IMG/VR virus record: IMGVR_UViG_3300034200_001057
Coordinates: 1-61,470 of that record
Direction: 5' to 3' (one strand)
Origin: a virus
Taxonomy: Duplodnaviria; Caudoviricetes
Length of the DNA stretch: 61,470 bases
Positions 36,059 to 61,470 of the stretch are shown here, in pieces (within the stretch, counting starts at the first letter, position 1; each line of letters begins with the position of its first letter). Below the pieces are notes generated by a model. The model was given only the letters and a program-made list of their open reading frames with translations. It ran no database searches and was not told the DNA's origin. The position numbers were made by a program, and so were the translations under genes.

Positions 36059-37021
36059 ATGAAAACAGCAGAGCAATTAAAACACGAAGCAGAGCAAGCA
36101 AAGAAAGCAGCAGAACGCGAGTTCCAAACATCAGAGTACCCACGACTAGGAAAAGCAGCATACACCGGACTCGCTCATGCTCTTGAGCAACAAGCCGAGG
36201 TACTATCTCAACCAGCACCAGAGCCCAAAGACTCAAACAGCTACGAAGAGCGACGAGCGGCAAGGCTCGAAAGACTCCGACGCCGTGCGGCACATCTTCG
36301 AGTTGAAGCAGCAAGGGCAGATGTTCGAGCCCATGACATTGGAAGAAACATCCCTTTCGGTCAGCCGATTCTAGTTGGTCACCACTCCGAGCGAGGACAT
36401 AGAAACGCAATCGAGAAAATGCATCGTTCCTACGAGAAGGGGCGAGAGCTACGAGATGCCGCAAGCGATGCAGCACATGCAGCAAGTGCAGCGGAAAAGA
36501 ACAATGCTATATCTTCAGATGACCCAAGAGCCATCGAGAAGCTATCGCAGAAAATCGCGCATCTCGAAAAGGAACGCGAGGACATGAAAGCCTTTAACAA
36601 GTTGATGAAGAAGAACGACATCGAGGGCATGAAGGCGCTAGGGTTCTCAGAGGAGAGAATTCACAAGCTCTTGAATCCTCAGTTTTCCTACTACGGAAAA
36701 GGCTTTCGCCCCTATGAGCTTTCTCTGTGTGGTGCAGAGATACGCCGCTGTAAAGCACGGATTGCCGAGATTCAGCGAAATCAACAAAGTACGGTAATCA
36801 ATCACACCGCTTCATGGTTCAAGGCGTTCGAGGACCAAGGCGAGAATCGTATATGCTTCACCTTCGACGGCAAGCCAGCCGAGGAAGTTCGCAATGTGCT
36901 AAAATCCCGAGCTTTCAAGTGGTCACCATACCGCACCGCATGGGTTCGCATGATTAACGCATCGGGCCGATACGCAGCAAAGGACATCATTGCAGAACTG
37001 ATAAAGCTTAAAGGCGAATAA
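36059..37021 (+). CDS. DUF3560-domain protein
   Basis: YEERRAARLER, IPFGQPILVGHHSERGHR, ISSDDP.AIEKL, FDGKP.EEVR..LKSRAFKWSP...AWVR. Confidence 0.8.
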   Translation: MKTAEQLKHEAEQAKKAAEREFQTSEYPRLGKAAYTGLAHALEQQAEVLSQPAPEPKDSNSYEERRAARLERLRRRAAHLRVEAARADVRAHDIGRNIPFGQPILVGHHSERGHRNAIEKMHRSYEKGRELRDAASDAAHAASAAEKNNAISSDDPRAIEKLSQKIAHLEKEREDMKAFNKLMKKNDIEGMKALGFSEERIHKLLNPQFSYYGKGFRPYELSLCGAEIRRCKARIAEIQRNQQSTVINHTASWFKAFEDQGENRICFTFDGKPAEEVRNVLKSRAFKWSPYRTAWVRMINASGRYAAKDIIAELIKLKGE

Positions 37022-42437: not shown

Positions 42438-43741
42438 AACTTTTGCCTTTCGCTTTGCTCTTGTCGTTTAATCATTTCCTGAACGATATGTTCGTTTCGA
42501 ACCTTGAGACGCCAGCCCCTTTGAGTAGCTAACGCCTTCAACTCTTCAAATTGCTTCTTGCTCTTAATATCCTGCCCATTCACCGCGACTCTCGTCTTTG
42601 GTGGAATGTTCACCTTGGGTTTTGCTTCCTTGTAAGCCCTTTGACCTACTGCCGCCGCGTGTTTTAGTGACTTCAAATGAGTACGCCGCATCACCTTCAT
42701 TGCGTGCTTATGACGATCCCACCGCGATGGGTCTTTTGTATCGTCGATAAACTTCTGCACGTCGTTGACCGTCATCTTCATCTGTTCGCGATTACGTGAG
42801 ACCTTGTAAGCCTTCACGTACTCACCAACTGGAATCTTCAGATAGTCCTCAACAATCGCCTGGAGTCTCCCACGCTCATGCTCTTGAACCTTCTTTGCTT
42901 CCACCTTTGGCCCGTGAGTATGGTATGCCTCACGTTGCCACTCCTTGGATTTCTCCTCGAAGTTCACATCCTCGACCTTGGCCTTCTTCTCCCGAGTGTT
43001 CTGATAGGCATAAGCCTTTGCAGATGCACTACGGGACTTAATGTTTTCCTGCTTCAGATACTCTTCAGCTCTCTGCGCTCTCGTGTTGTCACGCTCTTGA
43101 GTAACGCCCTCAACTACCGCCATACCGCGAGAGTCAATCGACATCTTGATGCCGAATGCTTGCTCCATGCGGTCAGCGATAACGCATTGGAAGATGCGCT
43201 TGTCCCGCTCCGATACTTCAAAGAAAGTAGAGGTATCGAGACTGCGAATCTTTCCGTCCTCAGTTTGTCCGCGTTGCTCAAAGATTGAATGGCCGTGAAC
43301 CAGGCACTTCCCCTCTCGGGAAAGAACCCCGAAAGCATGAAAGCCAAGAACATTAGCTTTCTCTTTCTTATGGCCGTCAGCACCACGACGAGCGAAGATG
43401 TGTTGCTCAATTCGTTGCTCAAGAGCTTTCATCGCAGGTACCATGACCTCCGACGCTACTTTCTTAGCAACCTCAAAACCACCCGCTGCAACAAAGTTAG
43501 TGATTGAGTTATCGACTATATGCACGAGACCAACGAGGCGCTTTGCCTCATTCGCTCTTGGTGGATAGAGTCGTTTACCATCAGGGCCGAGACGATCACA
43601 AAATGCATCAGCACTCTGTTTATCGTTCTTGTACCCAAACTCGCGAGCCGCTCTAGAAAAAGCGAGGCCCTCAAATTCGAGAGCCTCGCTCGCAACTTCC
43701 TTTGCATACTCGCGGTCCATTGAACCGCTTGCACGCATCAT
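42434..43741 (-). CDS. MobF/TrwC-like relaxase, divergent, no helicase domain
   Basis: LSREGKCLVHGH (cf. TSRxxDPxLHxH), EDGKIRSLD, AFGIKM, VEGVTQE, YQNTREKK. Confidence 0.72.
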   Translation of the reverse strand: MMRASGSMDREYAKEVASEALEFEGLAFSRAAREFGYKNDKQSADAFCDRLGPDGKRLYPPRANEAKRLVGLVHIVDNSITNFVAAGGFEVAKKVASEVMVPAMKALEQRIEQHIFARRGADGHKKEKANVLGFHAFGVLSREGKCLVHGHSIFEQRGQTEDGKIRSLDTSTFFEVSERDKRIFQCVIADRMEQAFGIKMSIDSRGMAVVEGVTQERDNTRAQRAEEYLKQENIKSRSASAKAYAYQNTREKKAKVEDVNFEEKSKEWQREAYHTHGPKVEAKKVQEHERGRLQAIVEDYLKIPVGEYVKAYKVSRNREQMKMTVNDVQKFIDDTKDPSRWDRHKHAMKVMRRTHLKSLKHAAAVGQRAYKEAKPKVNIPPKTRVAVNGQDIKSKKQFEELKALATQRGWRLKVRNEHIVQEMIKRQEQSERQKL

Positions 43742-43956
43742 GATGTAAGGGATTCCTTGCCGTGGAATTCGGCGAGTGCCAATCTCACCTGTTCCTTGAT
43801 GAACGATTTTGAGTAATGTTCATCCACCAGCCAGCGAATCAATTCACTGACTGTTATCCCTCTCTCTCGTGCCTCGTCGGAAAGATTCAAAGCCCTTTGT
43901 GGACTAAGTTTACAACCGACGTTCACGAGGAGAGGTTTCTCCCCGTCAACCTTCAT
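43738..43956 (-). CDS. Ribbon-helix-helix protein (TrwA/MobC-like relaxosome accessory)
   Basis: VNVGCKLS....NLSDEARERGITVSELIRWLV; ATGA overlap with the relaxase. Confidence 0.75.
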   Translation of the reverse strand: MKVDGEKPLLVNVGCKLSPQRALNLSDEARERGITVSELIRWLVDEHYSKSFIKEQVRLALAEFHGKESLTS

Positions 43957-43959
43957 AAA

Positions 43960-44133
43960 ACCTACCTTTTTGTCAAAGATCAGTTGTCGAGCTGGTGGGA
44001 CCAACCCACCAAGCACGACTGATTATTTCCAAATGTTGGGGTAATTCAACCCTGTTTCAGAAAGTTTCCGGGAATTTTTCCGGGTAACCGTACACTGACT
44101 AGCGACTACGTTACCCCGCGATACAATGCGGAT
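43960..44133. promoter_or_regulatory. Divergent intergenic region, candidate oriT / operator
   Basis: Inverted repeats GGTGGG-ACCAA-CCCACC, CCGGGAA-TTT-TTCCGG and GGGTAAC...GTTACCC directly upstream of the RHH-relaxase operon. Confidence 0.45.
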
Positions 44134-45274: not shown

Positions 45275-46045
45275 CTAAGAAGCAAGAGCCAACGTGGTTT
45301 CTTGCGGCAACAGATGCGCCGATAGCTTCATCGTCAATGATGCGTATCGTTGCGGATTCGCGTTACTCTTTGGCTTCAGTGCCGAAGTGAACGCGTTGAA
45401 CAAACTCCAGAGAGTACGATCCTCGAACTCTTTGAATCCTGGAACTCTCCACTCTGTGAGGACCTTGGGAATATCTTGCGAAGTGATAATGTCTTGATCC
45501 ATCGCACGAACAATCAGCGATTCCGCCTTCATGTCCGTTACGTGCTCATTACGCATTACCGCGATACGCTTTGATTCCTCTTCCTGGAATTGCGAGAGCC
45601 TCGATACTGCCTCACCGATGTCGATTCCGAATCGGAGTGCGCCGTGTTTGGTATGCTTCCGTGTGACCAATAAATCCCCGTAGAAACTGAGATTGTCACA
45701 AACCAGAACTCTTGAACCGGCCACGAACCCGATTGGGAAACTCTTATCGACTGAGTTTCTTATCCCCACTGATAACGTAACGCCATCAGCGAGAGTAGAC
45801 GCAAGGTCAAGCGTTCCAAAGAATCGCTTCCCTTCCTTTGCAACAGTAAGCTGCTCACGCCGTACCTCGAAACCAAAATCACGCATCGTATCCATCGCTT
45901 TGATGTATACATCGATGTGTGACACTGGATACCACCGCCCTTGAGGTGGTGGAGCTTCGTACTTGATGAGTTCAGCAACCGTGACAAGCTCAGTACCGCT
46001 ACCACGTAGCAGGGTACTCTGTGTTTCCATCTGCATGTCTCCCAA
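45275..46045 (-). CDS. DUF932-family protein
   Basis: PVSH, RFFG, GIRNSVDKS, GSRVLVCDNLSF, RKHT, TLWSLFNAFT. Confidence 0.8.
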   Translation of the reverse strand: MGDMQMETQSTLLRGSGTELVTVAELIKYEAPPPQGRWYPVSHIDVYIKAMDTMRDFGFEVRREQLTVAKEGKRFFGTLDLASTLADGVTLSVGIRNSVDKSFPIGFVAGSRVLVCDNLSFYGDLLVTRKHTKHGALRFGIDIGEAVSRLSQFQEEESKRIAVMRNEHVTDMKAESLIVRAMDQDIITSQDIPKVLTEWRVPGFKEFEDRTLWSLFNAFTSALKPKSNANPQRYASLTMKLSAHLLPQETTLALAS

Positions 46046-46075
46046 TGAGAATTGGGAAACTGTCCATTGATAACC

Positions 46076-46513
46076 TTATCGCTGCAAACAGCCTCCCGAG
46101 AGATTCGGAAGGCCGAGCCCTATAATGCTTCTACCCACTGTCAGGTTGACACTATAGGGAATGGGAAGCAAGTAATTTTGAGGCATAGGGCCAAAATCGA
46201 ATGGTTGGGAGTTGTCAAGGATTGCTTGATAACTGAAAAGGTATTGGTCCCAGGATTGGAATTGCACCAACTCGCCCCACCATACGGTGAACCGTTTGCT
46301 GTATGCGTGTGGCGTATGCATCCGCACTCTCTGTCCACGCCGCCTGAGATAATTGCGGGCAAAGTGAATAGTGTGCTTATGCTGTCGCTGGACCTCTACT
46401 TCCTCAGACCGCACATCAACCTTTAGCCGCTTGCCCGCCGACGGATAATAACCCTCTAAAGAAAAGGAAGCAAACGAAAAGGGCCGACCCTTTCGCCGCT
46501 TCCCCGTAGTCAT
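46076..46513 (-). CDS. Hypothetical protein
   Basis: 145-aa ORF co-oriented with neighbours. Confidence 0.4.
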   Translation of the reverse strand: MTTGKRRKGRPFSFASFSLEGYYPSAGKRLKVDVRSEEVEVQRQHKHTIHFARNYLRRRGQRVRMHTPHAYSKRFTVWWGELVQFQSWDQYLFSYQAILDNSQPFDFGPMPQNYLLPIPYSVNLTVGRSIIGLGLPNLSGGCLQR

Positions 46514-46577
46514 TCGACTTCGGGCACTGATTATTCCTTGAAGGGACCGGCCCTATCTCCGCTTTACCAGTGCTCTG

Positions 46578-47309
46578 CTATCTTGCCATGAATTGCAGGA
46601 GGTCGAGAAGCTCTTTTGATGATGGTTCCAATAGTGCCCGAGATGCCGGTAACTTCTTGCCGAGCACTTCCTCCCAGGGGATAGGCTCCATCTTAAAGTC
46701 ACGCCGGTTAGCGTTCAGCACCTTGATAAGCGAAAATAAGTTCTCACGCACCCCACGATACTGGAAGAAATAGCTCTTGTTGAACCAATTGACCCACCAT
46801 GCACTCGGTCGCCGATGCCCCCAGGTCATGATGAACCGCTTCAATCTCCGCTGATACTCTCGGTGGAGAGATACAGTCACCTTGCCGGTTTCTCGATTTA
46901 CACTGACCGCATAGCCCGCCAGGTAAAAGGGAGTATCGAAGGCACATCGGGGCTTCTCATTGGGGAAGAACTCCGAGCGGCCATGAGTTGCAAACAGGTA
47001 TCCAACATTGCCGCATCGAACGTACTTCACCGATGCTAATCCTTTGCGTCTGTTGCGGGATACTGTGTGACGCGGTAGGAAAGTCTCGTACTTGAAAATC
47101 AGCTTGGCGTCGATGGTCTCAGGGTCTTTCCCTGTAGGGATGACAAAAGAGGTATAGAAAATATACCCTTTCGTTGCGAGGTTTCTTGCATAGTAATGAA
47201 CAAGGGAATACTTGCCCGAAATGAGGTAACGATAATCGGTCATTACCTCATTGTTGGGGATTGTAGTGTTGAAGCACAATCCCCGGAAAGCTCCATCGCT
47301 AAAAACCAT
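46578..47309 (-). CDS. Hypothetical basic protein of integrative-element type (possible replication initiator)
   Basis: GYIFY...IPTGKDPETIDAKLIFKY...RRKGLASVKYVR...LFATHG; function unassigned. Confidence 0.55.
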   Translation of the reverse strand: MVFSDGAFRGLCFNTTIPNNEVMTDYRYLISGKYSLVHYYARNLATKGYIFYTSFVIPTGKDPETIDAKLIFKYETFLPRHTVSRNRRKGLASVKYVRCGNVGYLFATHGRSEFFPNEKPRCAFDTPFYLAGYAVSVNRETGKVTVSLHREYQRRLKRFIMTWGHRRPSAWWVNWFNKSYFFQYRGVRENLFSLIKVLNANRRDFKMEPIPWEEVLGKKLPASRALLEPSSKELLDLLQFMAR

Positions 47310-47509
47310 CTGCGAGACTTGTAATGCTCTTCACTTTTGCGCGTGACGGTATATCCCTACACCAGCGTTACTGTCCCGCCCATCCTCCTGATGGTCGGTT
47401 TCGTGATAACGGTTAATCGACTGCCCTGCCAATTCCCCGTGCCAATCCTCTTGCTTAACCTTGAGGCCCCGCCTGTAGCCTATCTTAACCATTGCTAAAA
47501 CTCTTGGCT

Positions 47510-48030
47510 CCTATGTCCCGACGCGCAATCCTTCTCTCCCGTTAAAACCTTCCGCGATTGCGGATGAAAGAGAAGGTCCCGAATTGACGGCGATTGTCAC
47601 GAGTGTGGTCACGTTGCTAGAGTCTGCATAGGACTCGGGCCGAGTAGGTACCATTGAATCTTCCGACCCTATGGCACTCACCCAGGTTTGGGCTTTCAGG
47701 CAGTGAACGCACGAAGTACGCCTTACCGATACCCTACCCGCACCTTTCGCTGTATGGCTCCGTCTCCAAAACACTGTGTACCTCATGGCGTTAAGCTATT
47801 CACCATGCAGCCTCACGACTACATGGCTCCCGCACAAGGCAGGGTACAACTATTAAGACCGACTCAATAGTTGCCCCCTGATACGGTCCGACCGTACTTC
47901 AATCGACGCTCCATCGTCGCTAGAAAACTTGTATTCCCTATTTGGACGCACCCGGCGGATAAGTCTCCCTATACCGGGCGCTACCAGAATTCTGGTTGAT
48001 GATGTTGCGACAAGGCAAGCGTAACACACT
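47510..48030 (-). ncRNA. Candidate large structured ncRNA (about 520 nt)
   Basis: About 9 hairpins, several of which pair fully only on the minus strand through G-U wobbles; GNRA loop; no convincing ORF. Confidence 0.55.
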
Positions 48031-48031
48031 G

Positions 48032-48556
48032 TTACCCTCTGAGCCGCCCTGCCTCTGCGAGGACGTTCTTCGAGTATTGGATTGACTCTTTACACCTCCC
48101 AATACACTTAGGGCCGCCATTGTAGCTTTGGAGTGCCTTTACTTCGTTGCCGTTGTAGGTATCCAACTCTTCTCGCAGTATTTGCGCCGAGCATCGAAGG
48201 TTCTTGATTGGGTCCCATAGCTCATCGGGCTTTCTGAGGCCACATCGCTTTGTATTGAATGGCATTACTTGGCCGAGACCGCGAGCCCCCACATGCGATA
48301 CTGCCCGAGGGTTCTTCCTGCTCTCGACATGCACCAGGGCATGAAGCATATGGCGAGGTATCCCTTCCCTATCCGCTGCCTCATCAATCAGACCGTCGAT
48401 GATGGGCCGACTTATCGCCACTGGTCGCCCAAAGTTCCTCGCCGACTCTAGAGAGAGCCGAGCCGACATAGGAATACCGCCATTCTTAGCCCAGAAAAGG
48501 CCGAGGCCAATGGCCGCAATTAGCAACCACTGGCCCCCATTGTTTTGCGAACTCAT
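48032..48556 (-). CDS. Lytic transglycosylase (SLT) with N-terminal membrane anchor
   Basis: ALVHVESRKNPRAVSHVGARGLGQVMP, NLRCSA, ALQSYNGGP. Confidence 0.92.
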   Translation of the reverse strand: MSSQNNGGQWLLIAAIGLGLFWAKNGGIPMSARLSLESARNFGRPVAISRPIIDGLIDEAADREGIPRHMLHALVHVESRKNPRAVSHVGARGLGQVMPFNTKRCGLRKPDELWDPIKNLRCSAQILREELDTYNGNEVKALQSYNGGPKCIGRCKESIQYSKNVLAEAGRLRG

Positions 48557-59468: not shown

Positions 59469-61470
59469 TTATGTTTCCACTACTCCCGATGCACTCCATC
59501 CTATTGTCCCTGATGCTCGATTCCCATCGGAATCAAACATGTACGCATAAAACCCAGTGGGGTTAGGGATATCTTGCCATCTTGCCGTAGCTGTCCTGCC
59601 ACTGTTGGCCTGTGCAGTAGCGTTGACTTGGATAACATCGACGAAATCCAAGTTGTACGGAATAAATGTACCATCTGCATCACTACCTGACACTATAGCA
59701 AATCCAGAGTCCTGCCTCGTTGTGACACCTATTTGCATATTGATTTGCGAAACCTGAACCATTCCCGATGGGGTTCCTATACGAACGGAAGGCTTAACTC
59801 TCGCCAATGCGTCCATTGCCGTAGGTGTTCGGCTTCCATAGAGCGTAGTTCTTACGTAGCGAAAACCAGCAAGGGCATGAGTGGCGGTTTTTATACCCGA
59901 CCCCGAGGATAGGTTGGTTCGAACCTGCACTACATCCCAATTAGCGGTAGGTGATGCCCTAGTTTCAACGGTATACGATAGAGAAACCTGGTCTGTAGCG
60001 TCAACTTGAACGACATCGAACGTGAATAGACCATTGCACGATGTAATGGCCTTACCACAATCCGTTACCCACTCAGCAACACCCTCGACTCCAGCCGGAG
60101 CTGGCTGTAACCACTCGCTATAACCGGCATCGATGAACCCTTGAATGGTTGTGAATCCATTGTCGAGAAAGTGAGCCTCCCAAGTCTCTCCAGATTGAGC
60201 TGGTAGGCATACGGTAGTTCCGTCCAATAGGTCCACCGCATTGCTTAACGTAGCATCCCCAGGGTCTAGTACATCACCGCCGACCTCATACCGCAGTTTG
60301 ACGTAACGGTAGTTGTTTCCATTTTGAGAACTAATGCCAGGAGCGCCGCGAGTCCATCGGTCGGCTTCCGAGTACCTCCAAAATAGCTGAGGGATAACTA
60401 CGGACGGGGATTCAAGCTCAGTAGCGGTATACGTTGTAGTTATGGCCGCCGAAGTGAACACCGCCCCTAGGTCAACAGCCCACTCAGCTATTCCAATGTT
60501 TGAGCTTCCAGGCTCTAGCCAATACTCATATCCATCATCAATAAGGTCCTGAATCGTATTAGCCCCATTAGCAGTAAAGTGGCTTTGATACGTCTCGGAG
60601 GTGTTTGCCGGCCCTACTACGCTAATACCATCGGTCTCTATACCAAGGTTGGATATGGTTAATGCGTTAGCTACTTCAAGAACCTGGTTGTATTGGAGAA
60701 CAAATCCGTTCGGTTGATACACCGATAGTAAGGTTGACGCAGCGGGGGCGACGTTACCAGCACTATCAACGGATGTAACCCAGTACGTATAGGTTCCAGC
60801 ATTCGGTTCAACCAGGGTAAAGAACGTAGCGTCCACGCTCCCCAGTAGTACCGCTGAGGTAAAGATGTCCCCTCGATAGACTCTGTATTTAACAACCGGC
60901 ATTGCACCACCAACGGGCGGTTGCCAATCAATGATGGTAGTTCCGTTAAGCTCCCGAGCGAATAGGTTGAGCACTGGACCATGCGTACCTATTGCAACGA
61001 TGTGACTACCAGCGGTACCCGTCGTTCCCGCCGAATTGATTGCAGCAATCCAAAATATCCTACTCCCCGACCACTCTCCTTTGACCCGATATTTTAACGC
61101 TGCAACCCGAGCAACGAATGTTCCTGATGCGTAGGATGCACCGTGCCTTATTTCGTAATCAATTATCGGAAGGTCGGATGATGGCTTTGACCAGTCAAGA
61201 TTTACATACTCACCCTCTCCCGACGATGTGATTGTTGGTGCCGCTGCTCCGTTTACAGTCACGACTACACTTCCCGCAGTACCCGAATTGCCGACGATGT
61301 CGGTTGCCCGTACCCAGAATGTTCGAGCACCGGACCACGTACCTAGAACCTTAAACTTTAGAGCATCGAGTATTCCGACCGAGACACCAGAGGCAAAATC
61401 AGTCCCGTACCGAACCTCATAACTCTTAATTGCAAACGAGCCCGACGCTGCCGACCATGACAACAAAACC
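59469..61470 (-). CDS. Tail tip / central fibre protein, C-terminal part with FN3-like repeats
   Basis: LSW...YEVRYG...FWVRA.D..GN repeats; continuation of the ORF starting at 2288. Confidence 0.85.
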   Translation of the reverse strand, partial: VLLSWSAASGSFAIKSYEVRYGTDFASGVSVGILDALKFKVLGTWSGARTFWVRATDIVGNSGTAGSVVVTVNGAAAPTITSSGEGEYVNLDWSKPSSDLPIIDYEIRHGASYASGTFVARVAALKYRVKGEWSGSRIFWIAAINSAGTTGTAGSHIVAIGTHGPVLNLFARELNGTTIIDWQPPVGGAMPVVKYRVYRGDIFTSAVLLGSVDATFFTLVEPNAGTYTYWVTSVDSAGNVAPAASTLLSVYQPNGFVLQYNQVLEVANALTISNLGIETDGISVVGPANTSETYQSHFTANGANTIQDLIDDGYEYWLEPGSSNIGIAEWAVDLGAVFTSAAITTTYTATELESPSVVIPQLFWRYSEADRWTRGAPGISSQNGNNYRYVKLRYEVGGDVLDPGDATLSNAVDLLDGTTVCLPAQSGETWEAHFLDNGFTTIQGFIDAGYSEWLQPAPAGVEGVAEWVTDCGKAITSCNGLFTFDVVQVDATDQVSLSYTVETRASPTANWDVVQVRTNLSSGSGIKTATHALAGFRYVRTTLYGSRTPTAMDALARVKPSVRIGTPSGMVQVSQINMQIGVTTRQDSGFAIVSGSDADGTFIPYNLDFVDVIQVNATAQANSGRTATARWQDIPNPTGFYAYMFDSDGNRASGTIGWSASGVVET
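61336..61470. repeat. Terminal direct repeat, right copy
   Basis: Matches 1-135 with one mismatch. Confidence 0.95.

Follow-up and report, generated by a model that had tools for sequence, protein, structure and literature searches.

The minus strand of a virus-classed stretch of DNA of 61,470 nucleotides (IMG/VR record IMGVR_UViG_3300034200_001057, referred to below as the window) encodes a large structured RNA which, judged against the text description of Roth 2021, descends with a probability of roughly 85% from the class of circularly permuted (CP) group II intron ribozymes, together with its acpG partner. CP group II ribozymes, the former T-large RNA, were described in 2021 (Roth 2021, iScience, PMC8637638). 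As given in the text of that paper, the class has a GGGCG 5' splice site, an NU 3' splice site and a linker of 15-86 nt, and its associated protein, AcpG, was reported there to have no homology to any known protein class. The window RNA shares with this class its large size, its location on mobile DNA, an adjoining acpG, the position of domain V (D5) 5' of domains I-III (D1-D3) and a split domain IV (D4), the halves of which pair across the RNA ends. It differs in length (~725 nt vs ~900 nt), and its contig is classed as viral, with planctomycete-type hosts; neither "Planctomycetes" nor "phage" occurs in the main text of PMC8637638. The RNA appears to be built, in this order, of the 3' strand of D4, D5, a short remnant of domain VI (D6), D1, D2-D3 and the 5' strand of D4, and a long-range D4 helix would zip its two ends together.

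Folding, extent and conservation of the RNA

An earlier note, made from the sequence alone, had proposed that positions 47510-48030 fold densely and in a strand-specific manner, and the shuffle control suggested there agrees with it. On the minus strand the MFE of this region is -207.6 kcal/mol (z -4.67); the shuffles average -175.1 kcal/mol, and 0 of 100 were as good. On the plus strand, in contrast, it is -156.3 kcal/mol (z -1.28), a value that 12 of 100 shuffles equalled or bettered. For the minus strand of 47250-48030 (781 nt), -300.1 kcal/mol was obtained (z -7.27; 0 of 20 shuffles as good). Furthermore, 47801-48100 is the second most over-folded minus-strand segment in a GC-corrected 300-nt sliding scan of the whole window (residual z -3.47). 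Pairing and conservation span ~48014 (weakly from 48029) to ~47291, with an additional hairpin at 47284-47256; the RNA is therefore ~725-780 nt long rather than 520 nt, and its 3' third had been missed in the original delimitation. No conserved protein, which the note had named as evidence against an RNA, is encoded in the region: the 91-aa and 53-aa ORFs within it have no counterpart in the related locus L005 (no plus-strand ORF of at least 60 aa at L005 4318-5013), and the conserved protein begins past the 3' end of the RNA, at 47237. On the other side, the stop codon of the SLT gene is at 48032-48034, and D5 begins ~50 nt past that stop.

Covariation, which had also been named as a check, is seen as well. 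Among the 221 pairs predicted by RNAalifold for the window vs L005, 35 show changes on both sides. When the window is compared with L005, L002 and L003 (four sequences that represent two lineages), both-sided changes preserve the pairing in 61 of the 142 pairs predicted. The share of paired cells is 95.9% vs 39.0-46.3% with the partners slid by 1-3 columns; these pairing and covariation values were reached by 0 of 500 shuffles. The AcpG proteins across the lineages of the RNA are only 40% identical.

Searches for further relatives gave little. There was no match in DNA similarity searches against phages and plasmids, and the flanking proteins have no close relatives in IMG/VR. When 401 Planctomycetota genomes were scanned for GGAGACGGAGCCAYACNGCGAA with at most two mismatches, matches were found in seven genomes, only one of which (G001) is real, and roughly a dozen genomes matched the backwards control. 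A looser motif pattern in IMG/VR yielded 20 stretches with 19 new loci, and the RNA or the protein was found in 0 of these 19. The sequencing runs listed as containing the element number 24, with no RNA runs among them; the fragments in four lake-water DNA runs are near-identical and show neither joints nor useful variants.

The RNA and acpG probably form one transcript. A consensus scan found no sigma-70-like promoter on the minus strand near the RNA, and a terminator-like hairpin with a U run (46473-46497, minus strand; ~80 nt past the acpG stop), which comes from the consensus scan only, is a possible candidate for the transcript end; terminator-like sites are as frequent as expected from shuffles (2 seen vs 2.1 expected). 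The non-coding sequence downstream of acpG (46577-46270) is conserved as well; it was left out of the element because it is common only to the window and L005 and is not over-folded (z -1.09).

The same consensus scan revealed one promoter-like site on the plus strand (47594-47623). Together with the conjugation-type neighbour genes (SLT, a DUF932-like gene, a TrwB-type coupling protein and an RHH protein), this site could be taken to indicate a DNA element of the conjugation module, e.g., an Frpo/ssi-like single-strand promoter or initiation site, or an origin. We regard this as hardly credible. An Frpo-type promoter is one long imperfect hairpin with -35 and -10 boxes on the strand that is transferred, whereas the window fold has multiple domains with GNRA loops; its G-U pairs make it specific for the sense strand; promoter-like sites are not enriched (1 seen vs 2.2 expected); and plasmid loci without conjugation-type context also pair the same RNA with an adjoining acpG. 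The earlier judgement that an Frpo-type promoter is less likely is thus upheld.

Domain V, split domain IV and putative domains I-III

Domain V is a 34-nt hairpin at 47948-47981 (minus strand, as all features below), with a 9-bp lower helix, a 2-nt bulge (CC), a 5-bp upper helix and a GAGA tetraloop. Its pairing is kept through both-sided changes in 7 of 12 pairs (four sequences). In contrast to the CP group II class, the triad is CGC rather than AGC, accompanied by a G.U wobble, and the 9-bp lower helix is a further difference; the bulge is five pairs from the triad. A strict hairpin scan detected the domain V geometry in 7 of 10 upstream regions, and a relaxed rule added L004. Counted by distinct acpG-like loci, a domain V-type hairpin is present upstream on the same strand in eight of nine, the exception being L006. 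In two of these relatives, the Rfam model RF00029 matches the domain V element above its gathering score of 40 (L038, 49.4 bits; L040, 47.6 bits), and the window D5 aligns with L040 3951-3990, within the RF00029 match, at a non-significant nhmmer E of 0.087. Another hairpin, at 47827-47802 (GCCAUGUAGUC-GUGA-...), was considered for D5 and rejected, since the bulge is absent and the position is within D1.

The window itself has no match at the gathering score to Rfam 15, including its group II models, and none at E<=10 on 47200-48300, 45900-47300 or 47890-48005 (116 nt around D5). The Rfam scan recommended as a check is, in fact, blind to the CP group II class: no CP group II match was obtained with Rfam 15 on the type locus of plasmid pTT8 either. 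The missing Rfam family, the viral contig and the five tRNA genes near the RNA in L005 would all fit an undescribed class of large ncRNA unrelated to introns. GOLLD loci are often near tRNA genes, and the window RNA is similar to GOLLD and ROOL in being large, highly structured and located on a virus-classed contig. Nevertheless, a GOLLD/ROOL-like class is very improbable here: the geometry and sequence of D5 are shared with loci matching RF00029, an AcpG homologue adjoins the RNA, and the RNA motifs are collinear with those of L038; from GOLLD and ROOL the window RNA is set apart by its group II-like architecture and by having no Rfam match at any threshold tried. The functional-RNA reading of the earlier note therefore stands in part. 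A structured minus-strand RNA that is related to ribozymes, with group II domains named there among the checks, is retained; the new large ncRNA is not, as the RNA appears homologous to CP group II (T-large) RNAs and carries the associated acpG.

The two ends of the RNA are joined by the split D4, in which 47983-48014 pairs with 47291-47392. The outer closing helix consists of a 5' strand at 47998-48014 (the 3' half of D4) and of 47291-47310, corresponding to alignment columns 14-30 and 721-740 in the RNAalifold structure of the window vs L005. In L002 and L003, the inner part of this outer helix is kept by compensatory changes (AUCAUC/GAUGGU to CCUUC/GAAGG, read from the alignment). The strand directly 5' of D5 (47983-47995) pairs with 47380-47392, and 5 of 9 pairs in these helices changed on both sides (four sequences). 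This interaction resembles an omega-omega' pairing; for Gdi-1, the text of the corresponding paper describes pairing of the segment between 5' D4 and D5 with 3' D4 (NAR 2026, PMC13717195). Besides the strands 47380-47392 and 47291-47310, the 5' half of D4 (47291-47392) comprises variable hairpins at 47312-47379.

The order of the domains is permuted: D5 is the first hairpin and is followed by ~640 nt of conserved multi-helix RNA, in which D1, D2 and D3 are putatively identified. Domain I (47523-47920, with tentative boundaries) would start with GCGACGAUGGAG, which aligns with the relatives' 5' splice-site motif GGGCGAC... from its third position on; at this place L004 reads GGGGCGACGGAGAC...CUUGAAGC. 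The basal D1 helices (47909-47900 with 47596-47587) show both-sided changes in five of eight pairs, and the window D1 motifs are collinear with L038. Stems that had been listed from the sequence alone recur in the predicted and consensus structures: besides D5, these are the D1 hairpins 47840-47880, 47882-47896 and 47803-47826, and the hairpin 47530-47576 (CCUUCUCU...AGAGAAGG). The region putatively containing domains II-III (47394-47522) is assigned by position only; within it, GGCAGGGCAGUC is conserved in the window, L005, L002, L003 and L038.

The putative domain VI remnant and its proposed junction with domain I

L004, L038, L039 and L040 possess the full layout of the CP group II class as given in the text of Roth 2021, including the GGGCG 5' splice site. 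In these loci, D5 is followed by a D6 with a bulged A in CU[A]YYCN, by AU, by a linker of ~12-41 nt (read by eye) and by GGGCGA; the pTT8 locus, also read by eye, has the same D5-D6-linker-GGGCG layout. In the window, the place of domain VI is taken by a short hairpin of 20 nt (47921-47940) with the conserved loop A-Y-ACAAGU. Two of the three pairs of its helix changed on both sides (four sequences), the bulged A characteristic of D6 in this class is absent from the helix, and its 3' strand, UUUUCUA, is similar to UUCU[A], which forms the branch-site strand of D6 in L004, L038, L039 and L040. Only a spacer of A, AAU or A (window, L005 and L002/L003, respectively) separates this hairpin from GCGACG, the junction reading ...UUUUCUA-GCGACG in the window, ...UCAAU-GCGACG in L005 and ...GACA-GCGACG in L002 and L003. 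The GCGAC of the window clade aligns with positions 3-7 of GGGCGAC in L004, L039, L040 and pTT8, and the window has no AY/NU 3' splice site, no linker of 15-86 nt and no GUGYG-like 5' splice site at this junction.

The sequences thus make it likely that, in the window clade, the D6 remnant runs straight into the 5' splice-site motif at its position 3, without a linker. This reading, like the D1/D2/D3 assignments, is based on four sequences from two lineages and their visual alignment to L004 and L038-L040; the quality of an automatic MAFFT alignment of the window with L038 and L002 was too low for mapping D6 and the linker. The basal stem of D6 and the 3' splice site seem to be missing, as do the exon linker and G1-G2, the two nucleotides with which the intron begins, and we infer that no RNA circle is therefore released. 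The P1 and P2 hairpins are absent 5' of the window D5, where only ~35 conserved nt precede it; L038-L040 have ~350 nt of unannotated sequence ahead of D5. In all these respects the window clade differs from the CP group II class. Lacking a linker, G1 and P1/P2, the window RNA is probably unable to back-splice.

The alternative is that the RNA is an ordinary CP group II ribozyme, catalytically active and producing a small circle by back-splicing, and that D6, linker and splice sites are misplaced in our reading. In one such layout, D6 would be the hairpin 47840-47880, which has an unpaired A, and the 5' splice site would be GUGCG at 47835-47831, after an intervening CCUU. Indeed, an A faces a G in the hairpin 47880-47840, CCCUG comes next, GUGCG is 4 nt further on, and D5 is intact and under selection. 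However, the linker would then measure 0-2 nt vs the 15-86 nt reported in the text of PMC8637638. Moreover, the same hairpin and the G-G/U-GGAGCC motif are found inside D1 of L038, ~200 nt past the D6 and GGGCG of that locus, L002 and L003 have GGCCG at the place of GUGCG, and GGGGCGACGGAG of L004 aligns to UAGCGACGAUGGAG of the window. On these grounds the hairpin 47880-47840 was rejected as D6, and an active CP ribozyme is, in our opinion, distinctly unlikely. A search for an EBS1-IBS1 interaction gave a single candidate, which is complementary to the five nucleotides preceding GUGCG; it pairs in three of four sequences and overlaps a predicted stem.

A canonical ORF-containing group II intron with GUGUG (48029-48025) as 5' splice site was rejected as well. 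L002 and L003 have GUGCC and GUGAC there, respectively, 45900-47300 contains no group II signal, and D5 is found upstream of the ORF. The window RNA has in common with canonical bacterial group II introns the D5 geometry, the GNRA loop and an ORF in the D4-loop position, but differs from them in the permuted domains, in having neither splice sites nor an RF00029 match, and in showing no sign of mobility.

AcpG and the possible role of the ribonucleoprotein

The acpG homologue (46578-47237) encodes 219 aa from the conserved start MTDYRYL and is located directly 3' of the RNA in the same orientation, whereas the Thermus acpG is divergent. A longer ORF of 243 aa, starting at 47309, overlaps the RNA. 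Ahead of the GAGG ribosome-binding site and the start codon there is a hairpin (47256-47284) that is conserved, with changes, in L005, L002 and L003; its loop differs in one lake metagenome contig. The window protein and the Thermus AcpG are distant, and the match of a single AcpG sequence to the window-family profile is not significant (1.7% probability). Nevertheless, the two proteins are similar in length, RNA association and top structural matches, and in an hhalign comparison the window family (26 sequences) and the Thermus-type AcpG (19 sequences) match at 95.7% (E 9.4e-9, 168 columns). The acpG-like family is large: 13 homologues were found, and at E<=1e-3 there are 910 cluster representatives, which range over Planctomycetota, Cyanobacteriota plasmids and a virus-classed lake-water contig.

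Pfam, NCBIfam, PHROGs and a PDB sequence search provided no name for the protein (a weak Peptidase_M1_N match, E 5.8e-4, was below the cut-off and treated as chance). The AF2 model of the window protein has a pLDDT of 84.4, and a model from the other AcpG subfamily one of 89.6. With these two models and two programs, group II intron reverse transcriptases rank first in all four structure searches, with modest scores (8t2r_D, E 3.5e-3, and 6me0_C, Z 7.9 with 183 residues aligned, for the window protein; 6me0_C, Z 8.0 with 193 aligned, and 8fli_B, E 0.043, for the second model); no Foldseek match has E<=1e-3, and the highest Z for AcpG is 8.0, values below 8 possibly reflecting a mere common arrangement according to the tool's own note. 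For the second model, short helical-bundle matches tie with the reverse transcriptase rows. At the position of motif C, the window protein has Y-V-R-C-G-N, the hairpin turn of the family being Y-[VIL]-R-x-G-x. No member of either subfamily carries YxDD, and the Pfam RVT domain was found in 0 of 14 members scanned.

Because the predicted fold seems to have a palm and thumb like those of a reverse transcriptase, YxDD is absent and the gene takes the place of the intron-encoded ORF in D4, AcpG may well be a vestigial maturase, an identification that we somewhat favour on the basis of the models. The likeness would be to the intron-encoded proteins of canonical group II introns, from which AcpG (~220 aa) differs by having no YxDD and no Pfam RVT_1, DNA-binding or endonuclease domain; this putative palm and thumb also differs from the picture in Roth 2021, which reports no known homology. 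The idea that AcpG may be a maturase-like RNA-binding protein, derived from the reverse transcriptase encoded by the intron, is testable. A full-text literature search for AcpG and TTHC007 gave only Roth 2021 as relevant, and this idea was not found. DRT2, DRT9 and retron reverse transcriptases, which are among the structural matches of AcpG, also have a structured ncRNA directly upstream of a protein with a reverse transcriptase fold, to which the predicted fold of AcpG would correspond. However, these enzymes carry YxDD and polymerise actively, and their RNAs are much smaller, whereas the window system has no catalytic aspartates and its RNA contains a group II D5.

Selection acts on D5 and the whole fold, while the splice sites and the exon appear to have been lost, which argues that the conserved function of the RNA is not circle production. 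In the text of their paper, Roth et al. suspected, from poorly conserved circle sequences, that the circle is not the function (PMC8637638). The RNA is probably a folded ribonucleoprotein rather than a self-splicing element, and AcpG would bind to and stabilise it. What the complex does may be guessed: it could act in trans on plasmid or phage nucleic acids, or merely control the expression of acpG. In a rival explanation, the ribozyme has decayed and serves only as a structured 5' leader for acpG translation or stability, with neither catalysis nor a ribonucleoprotein function. The RNA end ~50 nt ahead of the acpG start, the conserved hairpin abutting the ribosome-binding site and the lost splice sites would be in line with such a leader. 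Still, seven compensatory pair changes have left the 34-nt geometry of the catalytic D5 exactly intact, bulge and GNRA loop included, and ~700 nt of conserved tertiary-type architecture exceeds the needs of a leader, so that we consider this explanation unlikely.

As a tentative proposal, less likely than not, that goes beyond common descent with the CP group II class, the window clade may be a domesticated permuted intron that has no splice sites. Its D6 and D1 would be fused in the manner of a branched product or of an intron circle that was reverse-transcribed, and the opening of D4 would lie just after the protein gene. AcpG would then be a shrunken, polymerase-dead maturase, and the ribonucleoprotein would keep the group II active site and act on substrates in trans. 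If the domesticated-intron reading is true, the ribonucleoprotein might, for example, cleave incoming RNA or DNA in a guided manner in plasmid and phage settings, and the window clade would be a living intermediate for the origin of CP group II ribozymes from ORF-containing introns.

Structure, strand and extent of the RNA

The region at 47510-48030, proposed in the earlier note as a strand-specific, densely structured candidate for a new large ncRNA, is an RNA and not a gene. Its minus strand folds with an MFE of -207.6 kcal/mol versus a mean of -175.1 for dinucleotide shuffles (z -4.67; 0 of 100 as good), whereas for the plus strand, where 12 of 100 shuffles do as well, z is -1.28. The dense structure and its strand specificity are thus real, and the stems recur in the predicted structures. 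The proposed 3' border, however, is wrong: conserved pairing on the minus strand runs from ~48014 to ~47291, and a 781-nt stretch (48030-47250, minus) folds with z -7.27. The segment 47801-48100 ranks second among over-folded minus-strand 300-mers in a whole-window scan. The top over-folded minus-strand stretch in a GC-corrected sliding scan is 43400-44100 (residual z down to -3.51), which overlaps an RHH gene (44016-43738) as well as the beginning of a 435-aa ORF (43741-42434), and could contain an oriT or a regulatory RNA. This ORF, just upstream of the gene for a TrwB-type coupling protein, may encode a relaxase.

The RNA is preceded by the gene for an SLT lytic transglycosylase (48556-48032, minus; Pfam E 9e-24) and followed by the gene 47237-46578 (minus), so bounded because all homologues begin at an internal MTDYRYL. 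Two ORFs of 91 and 53 aa within the RNA region are absent from the closest relative, metagenome contig L005, whose downstream protein is 74% identical. The non-coding stretch is ~80% identical between the two, with many compensatory changes (both sides altered in 35 of 221 predicted pairs). Using nhmmer, the same RNA was found upstream of the same gene in an IMG/VR provirus (L002) and a Gemmataceae MAG (L003), where protein identity is only 40%. Across the window, L005, L002 and L003, both sides have changed in 61 of the 142 consensus pairs, and 95.9% of cells are paired, compared with 39.0-46.3% if partners are slid by 1-3 columns; none of 500 shuffles reached the observed values. The consensus was derived from the same four sequences, which works in its favour, the margin being large nonetheless.

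All genes around the RNA are on the minus strand, in a 61,470-bp record classified in IMG/VR as viral, linear and an estimated 80% complete. The surroundings mix conjugation-type genes (SLT; DUF932-like, 46045-45275; RHH; the 435-aa unknown; TrwB/TraG coupling protein, 42111-40795; tyrosine integrase, 40683-39460) with phage-type genes (tail/host-specificity protein, 59469-61466; endolysin-like protein, 51584-51045). Within 36000-61470 a conjugation-like block, which also has a DUF3560 gene (36059-37021), adjoins tail and lysis genes. The contig could be a phage-plasmid; it could also be an integrative element put together with a prophage or beside one. At least 23 DNA runs from lakes or fresh water contain the stretch; none of the runs listed is of RNA, which is uninformative on expression. 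Downstream of the 47237-46578 gene, the window (46050-46577) shares with L005 (5730-6960) non-coding sequence that is conserved as two blocks, 46577-46290 and ~46190-46060; in L005, five genes for tRNAs (Ile, Leu, His, Trp, Asn) are inserted between them. This stretch was not found in L002, L003 or the other loci and is not over-folded on the minus strand (z -1.09), and a 145-aa ORF there (46513-46076, minus) is probably spurious.

Domain V and the partner gene acpG

An Rfam scan, proposed in the earlier note, gave no match on the window at any threshold; this is explained by Rfam 15 also missing a circularly permuted (CP) RNA of group II type, that of the Thermus plasmid pTT8. The downstream protein proved more informative. 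Its family has 910 representatives (E<=1e-3) among 1.84 billion proteins and is unnamed in Pfam, NCBIfam and PHROGs. The available text of Roth et al. (PMC8637638) describes a ~260-aa protein often encoded beside CP RNAs, AcpG (TTHC007 of pTT8), and reports no detectable homology to any known protein class. The lone pTT8 AcpG sequence gave no significant match to the window family. However, 81 relatives of it were collected, and hhalign of 19 of them versus 26 members of the window's family gave 95.7% (E 9.4e-9, 168 columns), which identifies the window gene, at the level of sequence profiles, as an acpG homologue. A full-text literature search for AcpG/TTHC007 returned only Roth et al. 2021 as relevant, and the text available of two later structural papers mentions no such protein (0 occurrences in PMC13717195).

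Using tblastn, acpG-like genes were found on plasmids of a planctomycete (pK2D_1; L038), Calothrix and Leptolyngbya, each preceded by a gap of 1.4-1.7 kb in the gene annotation. The group II intron domain V-VI (D5-D6) model RF00029 scored above gathering at two of these three loci (L038, 49.4 bits; L040, 47.6 bits), inside the gap, on the gene's strand and >1 kb upstream. With nhmmer, the window hairpin 47981-47948 (minus) aligned to a part of the L040 element, though not significantly (E 0.087). The 34 nt of the window hairpin have the exact geometry of group II D5: the lower helix, of 9 bp, carries a CGC triad with a G.U wobble; five pairs above this triad is a bulge of 2 nt, followed by an upper helix of 5 bp and a GAGA loop. 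Our hairpin scan revealed this geometry upstream of the acpG-like gene in eight of nine distinct loci, L006 having none. Furthermore, 47983-48014, made up of the 5' terminus and the segment before D5, is paired to 47291-47392 at the 3' end, with compensatory changes. This fits what cryo-EM revealed, a D4 that is split and has omega-omega' pairing (PMC13717195, in the part available), and the overall layout agrees with CP group II ribozymes as described in the accessible part of Roth et al. (PMC8637638). The structured RNA is real and looks functional, as the earlier note had supposed. It does not found a class of its own, but belongs with its acpG gene to the CP group II ribozyme family, as a new and probably splice-site-less variant.

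A motif, GUGAAUAGCU, follows a GNRA-capped hairpin in the window (47802-47827), L005 and L038, with CGCAUAGCUCG in pTT8. By resemblance, this could be the 'highly conserved hexanucleotide' that the available text of Roth et al. (PMC8637638) places in D1 and links to the lambda contact with D5.

Splice sites probably missing from the window's clade

After D5, other acpG-like loci (L004, L038, L039, L040) have a 2-nt joiner, a long D6 (3' strand UUCU[A]YYCN), AU, a linker (~12-41 nt in our own reading) and GGGCGA; pTT8, read by eye, has the same layout. For comparison, in the available text of Roth et al. (PMC8637638) the RNA of C. testosteroni is given the splice sites GGGCG and NU, and CP linkers a length of 15-86 nt. 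In contrast, the window, L005, L002 and L003 have D5, ~7 nt, a short hairpin (loop with conserved A-Y-ACAAGU, 3' strand resembling UUUCUA), 0 to 2 nt and GCGACG(AU)GGAG. As the L004 5' splice site is GG-GCGACGGAG, the window GCGAC would be intron positions 3-7. Aligned in this way, the clade probably lacks the basal D6 stem with its bulged A, the 3' splice site, the linker and G1-G2, a mapping drawn from four clade sequences and our reading of four outgroups, the automatic alignment being poor. P1/P2 are also missing, because D5 begins ~50 nt past the SLT stop.

An ordinary back-splicing ribozyme, mis-mapped in our analysis, is quite improbable: the candidate splice site GUGCG (47835-47831) was rejected as lying inside D1, and L002/L003 have GGCCG there. 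In L038, the same hairpin with its GGAGCC motif recurs ~200 nt beyond the splice sites of that locus.

The unannotated plasmid gaps (L038, 3779-5487; L039, 3418-4973 and 5568-6914; L040, 3607-5000) carry full CP group II ribozymes with D5, D6 with a bulged A, AU, linker and GGGCG, and adjoin 'hypothetical' acpG-like genes downstream. These RNAs appear unannotated in the listed records, the PLSDB gene table omitting RNA genes.

AcpG as a putative maturase relative

The window AcpG model (pLDDT 84.4) has as best Foldseek match the group II intron RNP chain 8t2r_D (E 3.5e-3); in VIA-align it matches 6me0_C (Z 7.9; 183 residues, rmsd 4.3) and 7uim_D (7.7), followed by DRT9, G2L4, a DGR RT, a spliceosome chain and DRT2. 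The Thermus-type model (pLDDT 89.6) gave 8fli_B (E 0.043) and 6me0_C (E 0.44) in Foldseek, and 6me0_C (Z 8.0; 193 residues), G2L4 (7.6), 7uim_D (7.2), DGR RT (7.2) and DRT9 (7.1) in VIA-align, where short helical-bundle matches tie with the RT rows. These scores are modest, and by the tool's own warning Z under 8 can reflect a common arrangement. All long alignments (150-220 residues) are nevertheless to reverse-transcriptase-type chains, and two distant subfamilies and two programs agree. A beta-hairpin, Y-[VIL]-R-x-G-x, occupies the place of motif C; the family has no YxDD and Pfam finds no RVT domain. Like the intron-encoded protein ORF of canonical group II introns, the window acpG directly follows the 5' strand of D4. 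Taken together, the predicted folds, the missing YxDD and the D4 position tip the balance slightly towards a shrunken, polymerase-dead maturase relative.

Transcription of the RNA would most likely be by read-through from the SLT operon. A consensus scan for promoters gave no candidate on the minus strand, but those of planctomycetes may deviate from the consensus used. In the folded RNA, the helix of D4 would clamp a core of group II type. The transcript would also serve for translation of acpG, and its end may be a weak terminator-like hairpin (46497-46473). That the RNA is only a leader for acpG is unlikely. AcpG would bind it as maturases do, and no circle would form because the splice sites are missing. 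We favour, at a probability of roughly 45%, that the RNA works as an RNP, either with other molecules as its targets or at the mobile element's DNA/RNA level. For AcpG, the window locus gives a testable idea of its nature.
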